The notes below the pieces were generated by a model that saw only the letters and a list, made by a program, of their open reading frames with translations, had not been told where the DNA came from and searched no databases. Positions 43,927 to 57,365 of a stretch of 64,000 nucleotides of DNA are shown piece after piece; position 1 is the first letter of the stretch; every line of letters starts with the position of its first letter. The DNA is from Nitrospiraceae bacterium. Its GTDB lineage: Bacteria > Nitrospirota > Nitrospiria > Nitrospirales > Nitrospiraceae. The position numbers were made by a program, and so were the translations under genes. The stretch lies in NCBI GenBank assembly GCA_035454865.1, contig DATIGF010000102.1, positions 16,513-80,512 on the forward strand, in the 5' to 3' direction.

Positions 43927-44107
43927 ATGGCTTGGTCTTGGAAATTGTCCGGTCGTTCAGGTTCTGCTGCGCATAGGCTGAAACCCTGGTTGAGTGCGGG
44001 AGCATCAGCTGTTGTCGAAATTCACGGTTTCCTTGCTAACCACTAACAAGTCGCTACACTTGCGTGAGAACACAGACCAGTTGGTCCTGATAAGGAGGAG
44101 GAGCGCT

Positions 44108-44842
44108 ATGAAGGTGCGGATGTCATCACTGATTGTGGGAGCAGGCCTCTGTGCCTTGGTGATAGGAATGCCTTCTTATGCCAGAGCGGGCGATGAAGCG
44201 GAGACCGCGGAATTACTCATCGCCTTGCTCAAATCCGGTCGAGCCGTGGTGTCCGAACACCAGGCGTTAATCAATGATGCATCAAAAGGCAATAAGGGAT
44301 TCACGGATGAGTTCGTGGCTCACGAAATTATCGAAAAGTTCAAGGCAAAGACCCGTGTCGATCTGAGTCGTCCAAGCGGCATTCCCCAAAGGGACTTGTT
44401 ACTCGCGTTACTGGAGTCCGAACGCGAAGTGGTGCTTGAGGGACAGCCGGTTATTAACAAACAGGGCGTTGCCTTCAAAGGGTTTATCCCCGCCGTGTTT
44501 GCCCGAAAGGCGGGGGAAAAATTTTACAGGAAAACCGGCATCAAGCTGAAGCTGACCGGTGCTGATTATCGGTTTCCAGGCAATAAGCCGGATGACTTTG
44601 AGGCCGAAGTGCTCCGCATGTTTGCCGATCCTCGTCATCCGAAAGGGCAGCAATATGCGAAGGCAACCATGGTGAATGGCAAACCGGTGATGCGGGTGAT
44701 GGACCCCGAATATGCCGGAGCTACGTGCCTTACCTGCCATGGCGGTCCCAAGGGAGAGCGCGATATCACGGGGATGAAGAAAGAAGGATGGAAGGAAGGC
44801 GAGTTGGCCGGTGCGATCAGCATTGTGATGCCGATGCGCTAA
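44108..44842 (+). CDS. Exported c-type heme protein, DUF3365/Tll0287-like
   Basis: AAGGAGG RBS, signal peptide ending ARA, R.P.N.PD.FE, CLTCH, G.LAGAISI motifs. Confidence 0.85.
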   Translation: MKVRMSSLIVGAGLCALVIGMPSYARAGDEAETAELLIALLKSGRAVVSEHQALINDASKGNKGFTDEFVAHEIIEKFKAKTRVDLSRPSGIPQRDLLLALLESEREVVLEGQPVINKQGVAFKGFIPAVFARKAGEKFYRKTGIKLKLTGADYRFPGNKPDDFEAEVLRMFADPRHPKGQQYAKATMVNGKPVMRVMDPEYAGATCLTCHGGPKGERDITGMKKEGWKEGELAGAISIVMPMR

Positions 44843-44881: not shown

Positions 44882-45244
44882 ATGAGCAAGATTGTGGTTG
44901 TTGATGATTCGTATGCGGAGTTGCAGGTGATTGAGTCGTATCTCAAAGCGGCCAGCCATACGGTGGTGTCTTTCCCAAACACGGAAAAGCTGGAAGAGAA
45001 GATTGCTGCGGAGAAGCCGGACCTCATCGTCATGGATGTGGTGATGCCGGGCCGGAACGGGTTCCAGGCATGCCGAGACTTGAAGAATGATGACCGGTTC
45101 AAAGGGATTCCAATTGTGCTGTGCACATCCAAGGGGCAGGAAAGCGACAAGTTCTGGGGGCAGCAACAGGGTGCCAATGGACACGTGGTGAAGCCCTTTA
45201 AGTCAGAAGACCTGCTGGCTGCCGTGAAGCGCGCGCTGGGATAA
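44882..45244 (+). CDS. Single-domain response regulator, PilH/CheY-like
   Basis: VDDS, MDVVMPG.NGFQACR, TSK...SDKFWG..QGA, KPF. Confidence 0.9.
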   Translation: MSKIVVVDDSYAELQVIESYLKAASHTVVSFPNTEKLEEKIAAEKPDLIVMDVVMPGRNGFQACRDLKNDDRFKGIPIVLCTSKGQESDKFWGQQQGANGHVVKPFKSEDLLAAVKRALG

Positions 45245-45284: not shown

Positions 45285-45782
45285 ATGGAACCAACGCTTG
45301 AACTGCCACAATCGAGTGCCTCCCAGGGATCTGAACACGTACGATCCGCCGTTCCCTCGCGGATCTGCCTCATTACGATAGGAGGGGAGCTTTTTGCCAT
45401 TGATCTCCGCCACGTTCGTGAGGTGTTTGAGCTCGAATCGATCACCCCGGTTCCCGGGATGCCCGCCTCATTAGTCGGTGTCGCCAACCTTCGCGGGACT
45501 GTGGTCCCGCTGGCTGATTTGCGGCCGTCATTGGGCGTGGCAAGCTCGGCTGCGCCGAAGTATGCCGTGGTCGTGCGACATGGCGCTCAACAGGTCGGTA
45601 TCCTCATCGATGATGTTCCTGAAATTCGGACCATCCATCAGGACGACATGTTGGCGGCATCGACCCGCGGTGTGACCGATGGCCGCCCGTTTCTGTCAGG
45701 TCTTGTGAAAATTGAGAACCGGATGAGCGGGATGGTGGAGGTCTCCAGACTGTTGGCCTCTGTTGAGGGGACAATGAATTAG
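45285..45782 (+). CDS. cheW: CheW-family coupling protein
   Basis: ITPVPG.P...VGVANLRG.VVP..DL. Confidence 0.92.
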   Translation: MEPTLELPQSSASQGSEHVRSAVPSRICLITIGGELFAIDLRHVREVFELESITPVPGMPASLVGVANLRGTVVPLADLRPSLGVASSAAPKYAVVVRHGAQQVGILIDDVPEIRTIHQDDMLAASTRGVTDGRPFLSGLVKIENRMSGMVEVSRLLASVEGTMN

Positions 45783-45885
45783 TCAAACAGCATGAACGGG
45801 CGCGCATGGGACAAGCGAGCGACGGAAACATCACGATCCTAGAGAGGGTATCCATCTATCCCGAGGGGTGAGGAGGAGGAAAGTC

Positions 45886-47775
45886 ATGGCGAGGCACAGC
45901 AAATCGACGACATGGTCAGTTCAATCGTGGTTCCAAAATCTGAAGACTTTGCCCAAGCTGATTGTCGGGTTCTCCGCCGTCGGCGCCATCATGATCATGG
46001 TCGGGTTGGTCGGTCTGATCGGTCTCAACAAGCTCAAAGGTGAGTTGCAGTCGATTTACGACGGATCGACCTTGGCCCTCTCAAACACGGGAGTCAGCAG
46101 CACCAACCTCGGCCTGTACCACGACGCCCTCCTGAGCGTCGCCCGGCAGACAAGAAAGAGCGACTTCGAAGATGCTATTGCCCCGCTCGCCGACTTGAAG
46201 AGGCAGACACTCGCACCCCTCGAGGCCTACCAAGCGTCCGAGTTACACGAGTCGTCGACCGGCCGCAATGAAGGTAAAGACCTGCTGGCTCTTCGCACAG
46301 CGCTACAGGATTATTTCCTGGCTTCGGAAGGCGCCGTCGGCGCCTTCGCCGACAGCTTCGGTTCTTCGCTCTCGGATGATCAAAAGCAGGCGATGAAAGA
46401 TCTCGGTAACCTCGCCTTGTCCGTCGAAGTGGCAAACAAATACAACACAGCCACACTCCGTGTTCGAGAGCTGATGACCACCATTCGAGAAATCGCAAAG
46501 GAATTAAACGACAACGGACAAGCGGAGGCATCCTATCGCACCAACGTTGTGTTAATCGGAGGAATCCTGGCCCTTGTTCTCGGAGGCGCCATCGGGTATT
46601 TCCTCGCCAGATATATTGCTCGGAACATCGTCCATGTGGCCGACGTCGCCGAACAGGCCGCTGCCGGGAATCTGCAAGCGCGAGCCAAGCTGGAGAGCGA
46701 CGATGAAGTCGGTCACATGGCCAAGGCGTTCAATGCCATGTTGGACCGGATCACGGCTCTCGTGTCGACGGAAGAAGAGCGAGACACGATGCAAAAGCGC
46801 CTCATGCAGTTTCTCGTGCTGGTGTCGGACGTCGGTAAAGGAGACCTGACGAAGCGTGGCGAAGTGACGGCCGACATGTTCGGAAACCTGGCCGACGGTT
46901 TCAATCTCATGATTCAACGATTTGCCCAGTTGATGAAGCAAGTCCGCGAATCAGCCGACCGCGTCAATAAGTCGGCCGGAGCGTTGCGGGATAACGCCGG
47001 ACAAATGGCTGGAACCGCCAAACACCAAGCGGACGAATCGGTGAAAACGCTCGGCGCGGTCGAACAGCTGGCGGCCTCGATGCGTCAGGTGGCAGAAACT
47101 GCAGGAGCATCATCGGAATCGGCCCGCCAGGTGCTCCAAGCCACTGAGCGTGGTCGTGTTGCGGTGCAGGAAACCGTCCAGGACATGCAAAGCATCCGGT
47201 CTGCGGTGCAACGCATGTCGAAGCAGGTCAAAGCACTCGGCGATCGTTCGTTAGAAATTTCGCAAATCGTGTCGACCATTCGTGAAATCGCCAACCAGAC
47301 CAACCTGCTCGCGCTGAACGCCGCCATCGAGGCGGCCGGCGCCGGTGAAGCCGGGGCGCGATTCGCCGTCGTCGCCGACCAGGTGCGAAAACTGGCCGAA
47401 AGCTCCACGCAAGCAACGCGGGAAATTGCGGACCTGGTGAAGGTCATTCAGAGCGAAACTCAGGATGCGGTCGTCGCGATGGAACATGAAACGCAAGCCG
47501 TGGAAGCGGGGTCCGCATCCGCGCTTCGTACCGGCGATGTGTTCAAAGAAATTTCAACGATTGCCCAGCGGTCCGCCGAGTTGGCCCAGACCATCGCCTC
47601 ATCGGCGGCCAACCAGACTGCCTCGACAGATCAAGTGGGTCGCTCGATTAAGGACTTCACCGGCGGTGCCGTGGCGACGCAGAAAGCAACCGACTCAGCT
47701 CGTGCGACAGTCGAAGACATGGCGAAGCTCGCCGAAAGTCTGACGGCGTCAGTGTCGCAATTCAAGTTGGCTTAA
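45886..47775 (+). CDS. Methyl-accepting chemotaxis protein (PilJ-like; helical periplasmic domain, HAMP, signalling domain)
   Basis: Two TM segments, [31 protein letters not shown]. Confidence 0.93.
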
Positions 47776-50800: not shown

Positions 50801-51198
50801 AAGGCGAAAGAGCGGGAGCCCCTATTCTCCTGATTGATGACTCGCTAAGCATTCGCAAATTTGTCGGGAGGATGTTGGAGAATGCGGGTTATCAAGTCGA
50901 TACGGCGGTGGATGGAGAGGACGGGTTGAGAAAAGCCTCCGCGCAATCCTATCGCTTGATTTTTACAGACCTGGAGATGCCGAAGTTGAACGGGTTTGAG
51001 GTGATTCAGGCTCTGCGGAGCCGTCCGCAAACACAGCAAACGCCGGTTGTAGTCATGACGACAAGGGCGGGGGACAAGCATCGCCAAATGGCCATCAGTA
51101 TCGGAGCCAGTTCCTACGTGGCCAAACCGGTGGAAGAGCGGGCACTACTCCAAGAAGTCGAGCGATGGGTCGGCCGTGTGCCAGCAACCAGGAAATAA
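47830..51198 (+). CDS. cheA: Hybrid CheA/ChpA-like kinase (3 Hpt, dimerisation, HATPase, CheW, REC)
   Basis: AHKIRG and two AHTLKGSA Hpt motifs; HLVRNAVYHGIE, DDGAG, GRGVGLDVV; C-terminal DDS/DLEMP/KP. Confidence 0.94.
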   Translation: MSSEFDQQNLVAIFVAEATDGMTALTSVLHPPDESVPTPLQLQGQYIVAHKIRGAAALYGYSAVAQLAERLEAVLEQALSVPDAEWPRAVGAMREMVQGIQSLIQSIGQGGTEDAGVVERCLASSEGLVPEASGGESSVPAESSTSPEYINPELDAEVLSYFAPEAQEYLDTIDGLVQELQTNPSDEDASYRLFRTAHTLKGSAYTVGFQVIGDIAHPMEDCMVAVREGRIQLSRELLEVIAQAGGIIRLILRRDPVNVGRLQEEVPRVSRILSQLREGQAVILSPTQTATAIDTPEAAAVSSPALTTTVADVKPDLPATLTDDYLVPHLDPEVLSYFAPEAQEYLETLEANLLRLDKDPENKELINQLFRTAHTLKGSAYTVGFASIGDLVHHVEDFMGAVRDNRLKVLPGHTDLLLRSVDVVRVLMRRDPSMLAGTRLRFEAAMSELKRLEQGEAPASASPSQSVSAPLSSVEQNAGIGDDQTLGRATDGKPVEEREVIRVSRDRLERLLNLVGELVIGRGRLEQRLRVLEQLSQQVLACKSRLVDSVQSFEEKHTFTFQAAPSTSAEPATQGFPGSSDFGSLELDKYDDFNILARRISEVTADISESMSQLSGSIRRSHEDMSQLQHLTLGMRDEIARARMVPVGTPFTRFRRAIREIARASNKEVSLVTSGEHTEVDTGVVERLVDPLVHLVRNAVYHGIEPSAERISKGKPAVGTVYLHAAHRGNSIIIEVEDDGAGLDLTKIRAKAVKLGLVRSDQVQAMSEAEALKFIFAPGFSTADKIGDQAGRGVGLDVVKRVIEGMNGHINVESVPGVGTKFTLDLPLTLLIATALLVRAGNERYAIPLPSVREVTMSTAASLQQMGDRAVLHLGEEAIEVQSLRHILRHEVGAVDYTMPIVIVRTVAGPVGLAVDELLGRQEIVIKSLGSLKPLERSVFGGATIDPEGRVVLVIDPSRLMARESNESMAAPAAQDAALSGSGTTGQDDEQGERAGAPILLIDDSLSIRKFVGRMLENAGYQVDTAVDGEDGLRKASAQSYRLIFTDLEMPKLNGFEVIQALRSRPQTQQTPVVVMTTRAGDKHRQMAISIGASSYVAKPVEERALLQEVERWVGRVPATRK

Positions 51199-51257
51199 AT
51201 TGCAGAACGCAGGTTGCACAAGAGTATTCAGAACACCTATGGAATCCAGGTAATAGT

Positions 51258-51788
51258 ATGAGTTTGCGGGGTCGTCAAGCCAGGGTGACATCGCTTGCAC
51301 CTGTCTGTCGGTTTCTGATCGTTACCGTAGGCGGTTTGCATTTCGCCCTGCCGGCTGAACGCATACAGGGGTTGTTGACAATTGAAGAAGCCGGTTCAGC
51401 CGGATTGTTGACGGTGCAAAATGTCACCTATACCAGCATTGATCTGGCCGGGGGTCTTCAACTTCCCGCAGATGCCGAGGGGCCGGAGACGAGAGCGGTG
51501 CTTCTTTCTCATGGGAATGCTAGGGGCAATATCCGTGTCGCTCAGGTTCATGGACTGAGAGAGCTTGAGCAATCCCGGGTGCTCCCGCTGCCAGGGCATT
51601 TTCAAGGTGAGGAACAGACGTGGTATCAAGGGATGGTGCTGTTTGAGGATGGTATCGCGTTGATCCTGAATCCGGCCTGGTTATTGGAGGGGTGTGGGCA
51701 CGGTCGGGCCTCAGGAATGGTCAACGAAAACGATGCAGCCACACAGCTCCTTCCCGCGCGACCGGCGTTGGCCGGAGGGCAGGTCTAG
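51258..51788 (+). CDS. Divergent CheW-like protein
   Basis: FLIVTVGG..FALP...IQGL, V.QVHG, LILNP..LL pattern; operon position. Confidence 0.7.
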   Translation: MSLRGRQARVTSLAPVCRFLIVTVGGLHFALPAERIQGLLTIEEAGSAGLLTVQNVTYTSIDLAGGLQLPADAEGPETRAVLLSHGNARGNIRVAQVHGLRELEQSRVLPLPGHFQGEEQTWYQGMVLFEDGIALILNPAWLLEGCGHGRASGMVNENDAATQLLPARPALAGGQV

Positions 51789-51790
51789 AC

Positions 51791-52234
51791 ATGCTCAGAC
51801 CGTCTCTTTTGCGGAAACAGGAATCAGGATCCCGGTCCTGTCCGTTGCTCATCTTCTCGGTCGGCGGGCGCCGCGTGGCGGTGAAAACCGACGAGGTAGC
51901 CGGTATTTCAGTGTGGAAAAAGAGCACCCCCGTTCCCAGCCGGACGAAGTATGTGTCGGCAGTGGTGCGGAAGGACGATGAAGTGTTTCCTGTCTTCGAC
52001 TTGGCCGGGCTACTTCGCGTAAAGGTCGAAGGTGATGAGTTGTTGTGTCTGACGGCCAAACACCACCGGGGTGCCATGGCCATTTGTATTGATCAGGACA
52101 TGCCGGTGCTTCACACTCTGGATATCGCTGCCATACAGCCTTATCGAGGAGGGGAGTTTGATGCGACCGGGAGTTTTTCGAGCGGCCTTGAGCAGATTCC
52201 GATCATTTCATTGGCCAAGCTCGGCTCGGCGTAG
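51791..52234 (+). CDS. Divergent CheW-like protein
   Basis: LLIFSVGG...AV....V, TPVP, VFPVFDLA.LL. Confidence 0.75.
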   Translation: MLRPSLLRKQESGSRSCPLLIFSVGGRRVAVKTDEVAGISVWKKSTPVPSRTKYVSAVVRKDDEVFPVFDLAGLLRVKVEGDELLCLTAKHHRGAMAICIDQDMPVLHTLDIAAIQPYRGGEFDATGSFSSGLEQIPIISLAKLGSA

Positions 52235-52276: not shown

Positions 52277-53602
52277 ATGCGGAAGATTTTAGTGGCCGAC
52301 GACAGTATCGCAGTACGAAAAGTCGCGGAGCGACTGCTGACCGAAGCGGGACTTGGAGTTGCGCTGGCGGCAAACGGAGAAGAGGCTCTTGCATATCTAT
52401 CGAAGGAGCGGCCGGATGTCGTGGTGTCCGATGTCATCATGCCCGACAAGAGCGGCTATGAGGTGTGCGCGTTTGTTCGTGGCAACGCCATGCTCGCCAC
52501 CACGCCAGTTCTTCTCATCTCCGGCATTGTTAATGATGAAGTCACGAAACAAGCTGAGATTTGCCATGCCGATGGAGTTCTGAAGAAGCCGTTTCAAGGA
52601 ACTTCTCTGAAAGACCGTGTCATGGAACTCCTGGCTAAGCGCCAGGAATCTGCTCCGGTTGCGGCGCCGGCGCCGGCTCCAAAGCCAGCGCCAGCTCCCG
52701 CACCCGCAGCAGCAATGAAGGCACCGAGCGTCGAAGCCGCAAGCGGATCGCGTGCTACGGAAGAACAGCTCGATGCTCTTCGCCAGGCCGGCGCGAGGCT
52801 CAAGGAGTTGGAGGCACAGCTGCAAGCGGCACAGAGTCGCTCTGAAGGGTTCGAAAAGCAAGTGGCTGCGCTGAAGGGAGATTCGACACGTGTGCGTGAG
52901 TTGGAGGCGTTGTTGGAGACTGAGCGGCACCGATCCACTGAACTTGCTAATCACGTACAGGAGAAAGAGCAACGTCTGACGGCGCTGCAAGAGGTGGAGC
53001 GGGCATTGAAATTGGAGCAGGATCGCAATGCGACCCTCACGCAGGAAGCCCGGGAACTTCAGAAAGCCGCGCAGAAAGTTGCCGAACTCGACGCAACCCT
53101 CAATGCCGAGCGGGAGGCTGCGGCGCAACTGGTTCAGCAGCTCACCGGCCTGGAAGCAGTTGCGGCACGAGCGAAGGAATTGGAAACGCAGCTTGTCCGG
53201 GAAGAACACCGAGCCGCGGACTTTGAGCGAAAGGTGAAGGAAATAGAATCCGGATTGGCGGCTGAACAGGCCCGCGCGGGCGAACTGAGCAAGAAACTGG
53301 CAGAGGCTGAGCGATACCGTCAGCGCACAACCGAGCTCGAGGGGCAGTTGGCGGAGGAACAGAAGAAGGGAGCTGAGATCGTGCGTCGGCTGAGTGAGCT
53401 GGAGCAGGCGGCGCTAAAACTGCAGGAGACGGAAGCACTTCTGGCGACGGAGCGGGATCGCAACGGACTGCTAACCCGTCGCGTGACGGAAACTGAGCAA
53501 GCGGCCGAAAATGCAACCAAGCGATTTGAGGATATGGCCCGCAAACTCGGAGAAATCGCCGGGTTGGCTTCACAGCTCGGGAATGGGAAGGGGCGGTCCT
53601 GA
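52277..53602 (+). CDS. Response regulator with Pro/Ala linker and long coiled coil
   Basis: Intact REC (ADDS, SDVIMP, KPF), APAPAPKPAPAPAP linker, ~280 aa E/A/L/R heptad-rich tail. Confidence 0.88.
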   Translation: MRKILVADDSIAVRKVAERLLTEAGLGVALAANGEEALAYLSKERPDVVVSDVIMPDKSGYEVCAFVRGNAMLATTPVLLISGIVNDEVTKQAEICHADGVLKKPFQGTSLKDRVMELLAKRQESAPVAAPAPAPKPAPAPAPAAAMKAPSVEAASGSRATEEQLDALRQAGARLKELEAQLQAAQSRSEGFEKQVAALKGDSTRVRELEALLETERHRSTELANHVQEKEQRLTALQEVERALKLEQDRNATLTQEARELQKAAQKVAELDATLNAEREAAAQLVQQLTGLEAVAARAKELETQLVREEHRAADFERKVKEIESGLAAEQARAGELSKKLAEAERYRQRTTELEGQLAEEQKKGAEIVRRLSELEQAALKLQETEALLATERDRNGLLTRRVTETEQAAENATKRFEDMARKLGEIAGLASQLGNGKGRS

Positions 53603-53656
53603 TTCAGAACGTGAGACGATCTGTATGATCGGGTGTTTCCTGAGGGACCAAGACCG

Positions 53657-54595
53657 ATGGCCGCCGAACCAGAAGACGCATTCCAAAGAGAACTGATCGA
53701 GCTCTTTGTTCAAGAGGCACAGGAGTGGCTCCAACAAATTCACGTTGCGCTGGATGAACTGCAGCAAGGGCCCGCTCCCGATCGCCATCAAAAACTCGCC
53801 CAAACGATTAGGGCCGGCCTCGCCAATCTGGGCGGCTCTGCCGCTACGATCAGCCTGAGCGACGTCGAGCGGGCGAGTTTTTCCGCGCTTCCCTTCGTGG
53901 AAGCCGTTCAAGATCCTGCCGGGAAGATTTCTGCCAACGACTTTGTCCTGCTCTGTAAACAATTGGGGCATATTCACACGGCTCTTACCCGGGCAACGGG
54001 TGTGACGTTCGATGCTGAGAGTCCGGCCGCTTCGGTTGTAAGCCCTCCCGTCACCATTCCGACGAATGATCTGCTCGCGGCGCTTCGGGAACTCCAGCAG
54101 CGTCAAGCCGGGGCCAGCTCCGTCCACCGGAACCTTGTTCAGACGGTGATTGCCCAGGTCGAAGGGCTCATCAACAGCGGCGTGGGGCAATGCGACGTGA
54201 CCTCCATGCGCGAATTCCTTGACCGGTTCTCAAAAGGAGAGGAAGAATTTCTTCGGCTGGTGCAGCTGCTGCTTCCACGCCTGGCAGCTGAACTCGGGCT
54301 GCTCAAGGCGGGGGGAGGGGGCCCAGGGCAGTCTACTGAACGAATTGAGGCGGTCGTTGAACAAGTAGCGCACTTATGGTCGGCGGCTCAGCAGGTCAAT
54401 GCATCCCAGGCCATGACTTTCTTCATGGGGTTGCACAGTTTTCTCACCATTGTGCTACAAAATCGGGTTGTCGTGGCGGCCAAGAAATACGAGGTGGTGG
54501 AGACCCGCTTACGAGACATATTGAAGACCATTCAAGAGTGGGTGGAGACTGGACGAACGGAGCGCATGGCCATCGGTAGTATGCTCCCCGGTTGA
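53657..54595 (+). CDS. Stand-alone Hpt-like protein lacking the phospho-His
   Basis: ELIELFVQEAQEWLQQI Hpt helix A; ANLGGSA in place of HTLKGSA. Confidence 0.75.
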   Translation: MAAEPEDAFQRELIELFVQEAQEWLQQIHVALDELQQGPAPDRHQKLAQTIRAGLANLGGSAATISLSDVERASFSALPFVEAVQDPAGKISANDFVLLCKQLGHIHTALTRATGVTFDAESPAASVVSPPVTIPTNDLLAALRELQQRQAGASSVHRNLVQTVIAQVEGLINSGVGQCDVTSMREFLDRFSKGEEEFLRLVQLLLPRLAAELGLLKAGGGGPGQSTERIEAVVEQVAHLWSAAQQVNASQAMTFFMGLHSFLTIVLQNRVVVAAKKYEVVETRLRDILKTIQEWVETGRTERMAIGSMLPG

Positions 54596-54681
54596 ACAGG
54601 TCCTCCGATTACCCCCCTGGAGTGGAGATGCGGCCGGATATTTCCAGCCAGTGGACAACGAGAGAAGGGTTGTAAGCGCAC

Positions 54682-56766
54682 ATGAATTGGTATCGTGAGG
54701 CAGAGCGAGAGCTGACCGATGTGGCGGGCGCCGTTCAGAGCCAACGGCCCCTTCGCATGGAGCGGCTTGAGGACCTGGCAGCGGGACTGGTGTCGTCGTT
54801 GAAGCAAAACGATGAGCTGGTCGTGGAGGCGCTGTCCGGGCCGACCGGATCATCACTCATCACGAATCTGATCAATGTCGGGATTCTCGGCAGCAAAGTC
54901 GGGATTGGCCTGGGATACTACGGGAAGGAATTGGAGCGGCTGGCGCTTGCCGGATTGGTCCATGACATCGGATTGTTCGCCGTTCCCCAGTCGCTGCTCA
55001 CAAAGGCCGGGCGTCTGACGCAGGAGGAGCGGACGTTGATCGAGCAACACCCTGAACTGGGGTATCAAGTCATCCTACGAACCGGGACGGACTACCAGTG
55101 GCTGGCGCAATTGACTCGTCAGGCCCACGAGCGTTTCAACGGGCAGGGGTATCCCAACCGGCTCAAAGGGCGGCAGATCAGTGAGATGGCGCAGATTCTC
55201 GGCGTCGTTGACGTGTTCGATGCGCTCGTGAGCGAGCGCCCCTACCGTCGTCGTCTGCTTCCGCACGAAGCCGTCAAGGAGCTGCTTGTGACGGAGCGGG
55301 CGACGTTTCCCCGTGAGATTCTGAAGGGGCTGGTGGAACAGCTCTCGGTATATCCGTTGGGGACAACCGTGCGATTGACGACGGGAGAGGTGGGAACGGT
55401 GGTGGGGGTAAACAGCCGGTACCCGCTTCGTCCGGTGGTGAAGATCAATGAGGAGGGCGGTAACGGCGGGCTGGGATTACGGGAGGTCGATTTGAGCCTG
55501 ACTCCATTAGTCTCGATTATTGAGACGCTCAAACCTCCGGTCGTGGGACGAGTGACGTTTTCAAATGCGCCGCTCAAGGTCGTCGAATCTCCCGCACCCG
55601 GGATTGCCTCCGATCAGTTCACGTCGCTTCTCGAGAGTCTTGACGCCATCGCCTCCGCGATTCAGGGAGTCGTGGAGACCCGGATAGTCACGCCGCAGGA
55701 AGCGGAGCCTTCAGAAGGCGAGTCCGGAGTGATATCGCCGACAGGGAATCGGCTGCCGGACGGGAGCGATCTCCCCTTTCGAAAAGAAATCATTGGGTTG
55801 TTTGCTCTTGAAGCCCGCGAATGGCTGGCCCAAATCCAAACCGCGCTCACAAAGCTCGGGTCTGGTGCCGAGGGGCCGGTACGTTCGAAGCTGTACGGGT
55901 TCATTTTAAACGGAATTACCAATCTGGCCAGATCGGCGTCTACGATTCAGCTTGCCGACATCGAAGCCATGGCATCCAATCTCCTGCCGATTCTCCGCGA
56001 TGTCGGAGGGGCCGGAGTCGAGTCGAGGTCGGAGACGATTCGTTCACTCCACGTCGGGCTTGATCGAATTGCGACAGCCGTGCAGCGTCTGGCAGGAGAG
56101 TACACTGATGTCGAGAAGCATCTGGACCACGCCGAATGGCTCGATCGGTCCTCCGAAGCGCCGGCTTCCCTGTCCCCAACGCAAAACCATGCGAAGGTAC
56201 CAACTCTGGGGACGCCGGAGCGGGTCGCCTCGTCCATCCCGTTGTTGAGGGCGTTACGGGAATTGCAGCAAGCTCGCGCACGATCGGTTCAGCCTGCGCG
56301 AGATGTGTTAGAAGCAGTCATCCATCGCGCCGAGCAGGAAGTCGGGGGGCAGCAGGACCAGATAGATGTTGCGACCGTTGAGCGCATTCTTCGCGATCTC
56401 GATCAACTGGATGAAGAGTTTCTACGGGAAGTACATGAACGAGTGCCTGCAATGACAGGGATGCTTGTCCATTTGCATGGGGAGGGCATGCCCGATTTTG
56501 TGACCGCTTCTCAGCTGGACCCGATTCTGGCTCACGTCGAAGCGCTGCATGATCTTTCGAAGTCGATTCAAGCCGCGACAATCTCGATGTTTCTTCAAGG
56601 GATCAAGTCTTTTCTCACCGAGACTGCCTATCGAAAAGAAGCAACCTTGCCTCAGCGATTGGAGGCGGTTGAAGAACGACTTCAGGCGTTGGTTCCCATG
56701 GCCGAGCAGTGGGTCACGCTTGGCCGTCTCGAACGGACTGCCATTGAAGAAATCCTCCCTGTGTAA
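54682..56766 (+). CDS. Degenerate HD-GYP domain fused to a pseudo-Hpt module
   Basis: HDIG, HERFNGQGYP, DVFDALVSERPYR; C-terminal ~330 aa is paralogous to 53657..54595. Confidence 0.85.
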   Translation: MNWYREAERELTDVAGAVQSQRPLRMERLEDLAAGLVSSLKQNDELVVEALSGPTGSSLITNLINVGILGSKVGIGLGYYGKELERLALAGLVHDIGLFAVPQSLLTKAGRLTQEERTLIEQHPELGYQVILRTGTDYQWLAQLTRQAHERFNGQGYPNRLKGRQISEMAQILGVVDVFDALVSERPYRRRLLPHEAVKELLVTERATFPREILKGLVEQLSVYPLGTTVRLTTGEVGTVVGVNSRYPLRPVVKINEEGGNGGLGLREVDLSLTPLVSIIETLKPPVVGRVTFSNAPLKVVESPAPGIASDQFTSLLESLDAIASAIQGVVETRIVTPQEAEPSEGESGVISPTGNRLPDGSDLPFRKEIIGLFALEAREWLAQIQTALTKLGSGAEGPVRSKLYGFILNGITNLARSASTIQLADIEAMASNLLPILRDVGGAGVESRSETIRSLHVGLDRIATAVQRLAGEYTDVEKHLDHAEWLDRSSEAPASLSPTQNHAKVPTLGTPERVASSIPLLRALRELQQARARSVQPARDVLEAVIHRAEQEVGGQQDQIDVATVERILRDLDQLDEEFLREVHERVPAMTGMLVHLHGEGMPDFVTASQLDPILAHVEALHDLSKSIQAATISMFLQGIKSFLTETAYRKEATLPQRLEAVEERLQALVPMAEQWVTLGRLERTAIEEILPV

Positions 56767-57015: not shown

Positions 57016-57365
57016 GATGGCCATATTGCAGAAAGGCGAATGTGCTGAATTGAGAAGGGGAGACGTCATCAAGAATGAGATTTTCATCTTCAGGAGCCAT
57101 CATGAAACAACATTATTGAGTTTCTTCACGAATGAGAAGCAGAAAGTCGTCTGAAAAACGAAAGTCATGCGCGCAGACGGGTCCTACGTGTTTTCGAAAT
57201 TGAAACGGCGCATCTACTTGGCAAAAAAGCGCATCGATCTGAGTTGAAAGAATGCGCGCCGCATCCCGCTCGAGCATTGTGCAATGTTGTACGGTTTGAA
57301 CTCTTGAGGCGGACCGCTATAATGCCGCGGGAGAAATAACTTGTTCCATCTTCAGAGAGGCGTCA

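Follow-up and report, generated by a model that had tools for sequence, protein, structure and literature searches.

Why would a chemosensory gene cluster hold two copies of a histidine phosphotransfer (Hpt)-like module that has no phospho-accepting histidine, one as a free protein and one fused to an HD-GYP domain? The question is raised by a 64,000-nucleotide stretch of a Nitrospiraceae genome (contig DATIGF010000102.1 of assembly GCA_035454865.1; the whole stretch is called the window here), taken from a Nitrospira bin of 2.45 Mb that is 76% complete. The free protein, P0001 (312 residues from M9), is encoded at 53657..54595 (+), and P0002, an HD-GYP protein of 694 residues with the module at its C terminus, at 54682..56766 (+). 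We find that the ~310-residue module is a tandem of two CheA P1-type (Hpt-fold) helical bundles unable to carry phosphate on His. With a probability of about 0.55, we consider it most likely a non-phosphorylatable docking adaptor, similar to FimL of Pseudomonas aeruginosa, through which a variant HD-GYP domain is coupled to the pathway.

A duplicated tandem module

A sequence-only reading of this DNA had proposed that the whole protein at 53657 recurs as the C-terminal half of the next protein. A single BLASTP alignment bears this out, joining residues 17-319 of P0001 to residues 366-693 of P0002 (30% identity, E=7e-35), and at the level of sequence the likeness of the free and fused modules is far beyond chance. 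Every matching block quoted in that reading lies within the alignment, and P0002 residue 366 maps to nucleotide 55777, about where the match had been said to start. Both paralogues are conserved across Nitrospira. The GTG start at 53633 listed for the free protein is probably wrong and the ATG at 53657 (M9) the start, because 121/121 close homologues start there.

The same reading had described a single ~310-residue Hpt-like module. Its Hpt-like nature and its presence in two copies stand, but each copy is really two tandem pseudo-Hpt domains. In the free protein, the N domain lies at ~53657-54007 and the C domain at ~54044-54592 (+). The fused module covers P0002 residues 362-693 (55765..56763, +), with its N domain starting at ~55777 and its C domain at ~56215.

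Fold and ancestry of the two domains

The AlphaFold2 model of P0001 has a mean predicted local distance difference test score (pLDDT) of 84 and consists of two helical domains with a disordered linker between them. The N domain superposes on the P1 domain of Thermotoga maritima CheA (1tqg) over 104/105 residues (Z 13.0, root-mean-square deviation (rmsd) 2.4 Å), followed by other CheA P1 structures, YojN, Ypd1 and plant AHPs. Folded alone, the C domain (pLDDT 89.8, predicted template modelling score 0.83) matches 1tqg over 105/105 residues (Z 13.9, rmsd 1.9 Å), and then 1i5n, 2lp4, 3kyj, 2ld6, AHP2 and the ArcB Hpt domain. The predicted fold is thus that of an Hpt bundle, as had been supposed. 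For both domains, 1tqg is the best natural solved match, and designed repeat proteins score about equal. Foldseek aligned the N domain to CheA P1 with template modelling scores of 0.64-0.79; against the PDB it returned no match at E<=0.001 for either model, CheA P1 chains appearing only at E 0.16-0.33.

Profile searches point the same way for the N domain. A family profile built from 61 free and 61 fused modules (A1) picked out P1 of T. maritima CheA from the PDB, in register and along the full N domain (2ld6, E=5.6e-4; 1tqg, E=1.6e-3). Searched against 1.84 billion representative proteins, it found a ChpA-like kinase with five Hpt domains (E=3e-19), and the family Thr stands in register opposite the His of four genuine Hpt domains of this kinase (P0380). 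The Pfam Hpt model (PF01627), the one informative Pfam match, scores P0001 at 16.9 bits, below its cut-off of 24.6, and does not hit P0002, with weak hits in 78/122 family members; some relatives exceed the cut-off (P0260, 36.5 bits; P0245, 48.3 bits). Together, these lines identify the N-terminal third as an Hpt domain of the CheA P1 type. In the C domain, the combination of fold and weak sequence signals suggests a second Hpt-type bundle, far more diverged and with two extra N-terminal helices; a profile comparison of the two halves aligned them helix for helix at E 0.003-0.005, with low probability.

Matches to DUF1631 (15.3 bits, P0001) and DUF7553 (many fused copies) were dismissed as noise, being far below cut-off and in helical regions. 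One relative, P0245 (a metagenome representative of 420 residues), has its N-terminal pseudo-Hpt domain doubled, with Thr at the His position in both, and one C domain.

Loss of the phospho-accepting histidine

The register of the His position comes from alignments, made with phmmer and with profiles, to P1 of T. maritima CheA and to the P0380 Hpt domains. It places Ala64 (codon 53822..53824, +) at the phospho-His position of the free copy and Thr413 (codon 55918..55920, +) at that of the fused copy, the two residues that the sequence-only reading had put in place of the H of HTLKGSA. Close homologues have Thr, Ala or Ser there (free, T94/A23/S4, n=121; fused, T110/S6/A4, n=121), as do 62 full-length representatives of 50%-identity clusters (T52/A5/S5). 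His was found at this position in none of the 242 close homologues or the 62 diverse representatives. Structure matches and these residue counts agree that both copies hold CheA P1-like bundles without the phospho-accepting His. Phosphorylation on Thr cannot be essential, because this genome's free copy has Ala at the site.

Neither of the alternative phospho-histidines that had been suggested, in VAHLWSAA and ALHDLS, is conserved: H247 of the former is Gln in 108/121 free homologues, and H623 of the latter is His in 77, Gln in 25 and Tyr in 7 of the 121 fused homologues. H37, H52, H113, H115 and H268 are kept among close free orthologues and lost in the fused paralogue and the wider family, and no alignment column has His in >=30% of the 62 representatives. 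At the positions that in Escherichia coli CheA hold the Lys and Glu activating the P1 His, the family reads Gly/Ala and Pro.

The helix that carried the old active site is nevertheless the best-conserved part of the protein, with the motif [LIVM]-T-N-L-G-G-S-A-A-T. Helices A and B of the N domain hold 15 of the 31 positions conserved at >=85%, and a second conserved patch, made up of W303, G307, E310 and R311, lies where the C domain ends. Judged by this pattern of conservation, selection acts on the helix A/B face of the N domain for some function other than phosphate carriage.

Distribution and gene order

With 356 representative clusters at E<=0.001, the family is small. The module occurs in 27 of the 28 Nitrospiraceae among 200 sampled Nitrospirota genomes; beyond the Nitrospiraceae, the only hits in this sample were weak ones to long reading frames the size of CheA. 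Sampling one genome per genus, we found it in 22 of 30 Nitrospiraceae genera (the 30-genome tallies given here include one unpublished genome, G206, on which none of our conclusions rests). Synteny in the genome collection was read from the best 80 of 287 confirmed loci, nearly all labelled Nitrospira, Nitrospiraceae or Nitrospirota; four of the 80 have other labels (two 'uncultured bacterium', one Omnitrophota metagenome-assembled genome and one 'uncultured Nitrosospira').

The order kept at these loci is a receiver (REC) protein, CheW, a methyl-accepting chemotaxis protein (MCP), CheA, two CheW, a REC protein with a coiled coil (RECcc), the free module, an optional AAA_22 ATPase and an optional HD-GYP gene, followed on the 3' side by a small membrane protein and then by lpxD on the other strand. 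RECcc precedes the free module at every locus with a readable upstream flank. An HD-GYP gene is present in 78 of the best 80 loci, and the two exceptions end at a contig edge. Among the 78 HD-GYP genes, 28 have the fused module and 50 encode HD-GYP proteins of 336-362 residues without it. In L091, L092 and L094, three deeper lineages inspected separately, the free module occurs with no HD-GYP gene. Fusion to HD-GYP is limited to a minority of lineages.

A quick maximum-likelihood tree with a midpoint root, whose speed and rooting limit further inference, places the fused modules as a supported subclade within a large clade of free proteins. This large clade is split from the clade holding the window's free protein with a Shimodaira-Hasegawa-like approximate likelihood ratio test (SH-aLRT) value of 96. 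Because the fused modules thus fall in a clade apart from the window's free protein, the tree indicates that the pair is an old paralogy and not a recent tandem copy.

A variant HD-GYP domain

The HD-GYP domain of P0002 (residues 40-226; 54799..55359, +) was delimited by alignment to PmGH (4mcw) and has its HD motif at H94-D95 and its GYP motif at G156-Y157-P158. The full metal ligand set of PmGH is E185, H189, H221, D222, H250, H276, H277 and D305. P0002 keeps equivalents of HD, H250, H277, E278, GYP, D305 and RPY, and has replacements for E185 (S/P58), H189 (N62), H276 (A148; A/V) and K225 (L98), so that five of the eight ligands are kept and three are lost, along with the K225 equivalent. 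The replacements are near-invariant in 156 HD-GYP homologues (111 fused and 45 unfused). In PmGH, H189A, H276A and K225A each abolish activity, yet RpfG too lacks equivalents of E185 and H189 (PMC4159591). The domain is therefore a variant that has been conserved and that may have weak activity or none. A Pfam scan found no REC domain in P0002, and in NCBIfam the only match to P0002 is a NosR-type HD-GYP hit below cut-off.

A probable docking adaptor and the alternatives

In the reading we favour, the old phosphotransfer face of the N domain would still dock a receiver of the pathway without taking phosphate. The likeliest docked receiver would be the adjacent RECcc, and otherwise the CheY-like protein or the receiver of CheA; the kinase domain would be a less likely partner than a receiver. 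The free protein would hold, sequester or position the docked receiver, and the fused paralogue, through contacts of the same type, would deliver the variant HD-GYP domain to the pathway. Free and fused copies would address one pool of partners, as competitors or as parallel adaptors.

Several points weigh against this reading. Each binding step, like the heterodimerisation and the decoy or adaptor role that the sequence-only reading had put forward, is inferred from fold, conservation pattern, synteny and the FimL precedent. Four-helix bundles are common, and a Z near 13 can be reached by unrelated helical bundles. The conserved Thr-Asn-Leu-Gly-Gly-Ser-Ala at the old site could serve another partner, such as the CheA kinase domain. 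The free module also persists in lineages without HD-GYP, so its core role lies elsewhere than in any link to cyclic dinucleotides.

The P1 helix A/B face of CheA meets the P4 domain as well as CheY, and this face is the best-conserved surface of the module, whose N domain is nearest to CheA-type P1 and not to other Hpt classes. The modules might then be pseudo-substrate regulators, His-less P1 look-alikes that replace the three real P1 domains of CheA on its P4 domain and so tune autophosphorylation; the fused copy would put an HD-GYP domain at the kinase. We regard this as unlikely, given that the universal neighbour of the module is a receiver protein and that FimL, the documented precedent, binds a receiver. 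Somewhat less doubtful, though still on the unlikely side, is a helical scaffold in which the Hpt ancestry is vestigial and which binds the RECcc coiled coil, a polar hub, an ExeA-like ATPase or HD-GYP itself. The conserved C-domain patch formed by W303, G307, E310 and R311 would suit such a scaffold, as would the ~280-residue coiled coil of the neighbouring RECcc and the AAA_22 ATPase gene that lies between the free gene and HD-GYP in 46/78 loci, but the highest conservation is at the old phosphotransfer site of the N domain, which is hard to square with a vestigial site.

That the module is a real phosphate carrier, on the conserved Thr or Ser (a 'Tpt' domain) or on another residue, is highly improbable: Ala occupies the site in this genome's free copy and in 23/121 close free homologues, and Gly/Ala and Pro stand where, in E. 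coli CheA, Lys and Glu activate the His of P1. Thr in 52 of the 62 representatives would fit such a carrier, and ChpA does have domains named Tpt and Spt (PMC10896506), yet in vitro four of the nine Xpt domains of ChpA stay unphosphorylated (reviewed in PMC12632253).

A further idea, which we put forward as a long shot, concerns the direction of signalling. The variant HD-GYP domain may sense a cyclic dinucleotide and not hydrolyse it; in the nucleotide-bound state, the pseudo-Hpt tail of P0002 would occupy the receiver or the kinase, and the free paralogue would be a constitutive competitor. If true, the fusion would be a decoy gated by a second messenger that feeds cyclic di-GMP (c-di-GMP) status into the chemosensory array, the reverse of the usual direction from array to c-di-GMP.

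Comparison with known systems

FimL has two Hpt-like domains with Gln in place of His, is homologous to the N terminus of ChpA (PMC3019171), and recruits the receiver PilG, with a link to cyclic AMP (cAMP; PMC10519157). Compared by its published description, this accessory protein of the Pil-Chp system of P. aeruginosa resembles the free Nitrospira protein in standing alone, in having two His-less Hpt-like domains, in belonging, as the gene order of the cluster suggests, to a Pil-Chp-type pathway and in being related to the Hpt region of a cognate multi-Hpt CheA. FimL acts through PilG to couple its pathway to a nucleotide second messenger, and a corresponding role is what we would expect of the Nitrospira module. 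The two differ at the old site, which is Gln in FimL and Thr or Ala in the Nitrospira module. PDB sequence searches with the module did not bring up FimL. FimL is also encoded away from chpA and acts together with FimV and the cAMP cyclase CyaB, whereas the Nitrospira module has its own motif (T-N-L-G-G-S-A-A-T), lies inside the operon and is fused to HD-GYP in some lineages.

Within ChpA itself, the Xpt domains that are not phosphorylated have been proposed as scaffolds (PMC12632253). The Tpt, Spt and other such Xpt domains share with our module the Hpt fold, Thr or Ser at the His position and a proposed role as protein-binding scaffolds, but they lie within the kinase, whereas the Nitrospira modules are separate proteins or fused to HD-GYP. 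Genuine CheA P1 domains (PF01627; PDB 1tqg, 1i5n, 3kyj) have the same fold and in-register homology, and the Nitrospira modules differ from them in lacking the His. AHP6 of Arabidopsis, a pseudo-Hpt protein without His, competitively inhibits a phosphorelay; unlike the module it is eukaryotic, has a single domain and has no link to chemosensory arrays or cyclic dinucleotides. The RpfG family (REC-HD-GYP) likewise places HD-GYP under phosphorelay control; P0002 differs in having no fused receiver and, instead, a C-terminal pseudo-Hpt tandem where a receiver could be met in trans. HnoD and similar inactive HD-GYP regulators illustrate that degenerate HD-GYP domains can work through protein contacts.

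Pseudo-Hpt proteins as such are known, but this family, with its tandem build, invariant motif and HD-GYP fusion, is not in Pfam, NCBIfam, the HD-GYP survey or the searchable literature. Neither Pfam nor NCBIfam has a model for the module, and NCBIfam has no family for the free protein; the JGI label for the module is 'CheA'. The survey of HD-GYP partners by Galperin and Chou lists no such architecture and never mentions Hpt, and a literature search returned nothing on this Nitrospira locus. The unannotated module family deserves a name of its own.

If the module is a receiver-docking adaptor, it would carry beyond Proteobacteria the FimL principle, by which a phosphotransfer domain that has gone dead finds new use as a scaffold coupling a Pil-Chp-type array to a nucleotide second messenger. 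The natural series of free module only, free module with a separate HD-GYP protein and free module with a fused HD-GYP protein would help in working out how wiring of this kind evolves. In soils and in the treatment of water and wastewater, nitrite is oxidised mainly by Nitrospira, which grow in aggregates and biofilms; the pathway described here is the only CheA-type pathway found in this genome and is kept in most Nitrospiraceae genera sampled.

The chemosensory cluster and its neighbours

The cluster spans 44.9-56.8 kb of the window, with every gene on the + strand. At its head are genes for a CheY-like REC protein (44882-45244), CheW (45285-45782) and an MCP (45868-47775). The CheA gene (P0004; 47800..51198, +) encodes three genuine Hpt domains, all of which retain His, followed by dimerisation, HATPase and CheW-like domains and a C-terminal REC domain. 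Two CheW-like genes come next (open reading frames 51165-51788 and 51692-52234, +); as listed they share ~97 nucleotides, and for one or both of them the start given probably lies too far 5'. RECcc (P0003; 52277..53602, +), the upstream neighbour of the free module, completes the set. Neither cheB nor cheR was found within this cluster.

The REC domain of P0003 keeps D8, D9, D52, S82 and K104 and is 73-94% identical across loci. Over Nitrospira loci whose free modules are only 55-77% identical, this domain (52277-52651) is 82-94% identical, and no other protein part of the operon tail is nearly as constrained. The combination of a receiver and a long coiled coil in P0003 resembles FrzS of Myxococcus. 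A complex prediction for the P0003 REC domain with the whole free module scored 0.01 against a mark of 0.32, which by the rule of the tool speaks neither for nor against binding.

No CheA-type Hpt locus other than that of P0004 was found in the 76%-complete bin, which also has PilB/PilT-type ATPases and seven GGDEF genes and in which FliM was not found. In the set of 30 Nitrospiraceae genomes, the module occurs in the absence of FliM in nine, and FliM in the absence of the module in two. The cluster does not seem to be tied to flagella, because module and FliM occur apart in this way, and its gene order (CheY-CheW-MCP-multi-Hpt CheA-REC) and FliM independence fit a pathway of the Pil-Chp-like or alternative-function type. 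The only other Hpt match in the bin is a stand-alone protein of 108 residues (C99:21335-21574), ~2.4 kb from a GGDEF gene (C99:18425-18895).

The AAA_22 ATPase gene (~295 residues; for example, L019:10964-11851 and L023:11000-11878), which stands between the free module and HD-GYP in 46 of the 78 loci, is absent from the window, where 54596-54681 is an 86-nucleotide gap. It was considered as a third copy of the module and rejected, as hhalign found no likeness; it is a relative, matched below cut-off, of XrtA/PEP-CTERM-type ATPases. Directly 5' of the CheY-like gene is a Tll0287-like (heme PAS-like) gene (43994-44842, +), kept at the cluster head in many loci. On the 3' side, P0394 (57366-57887, +) is a predicted multi-pass membrane protein of 173 residues without a family match, and a gene of this type comes after the cluster in nearly all related loci. 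The 600-nucleotide gap before it has a promoter-like site at 57296-57323.

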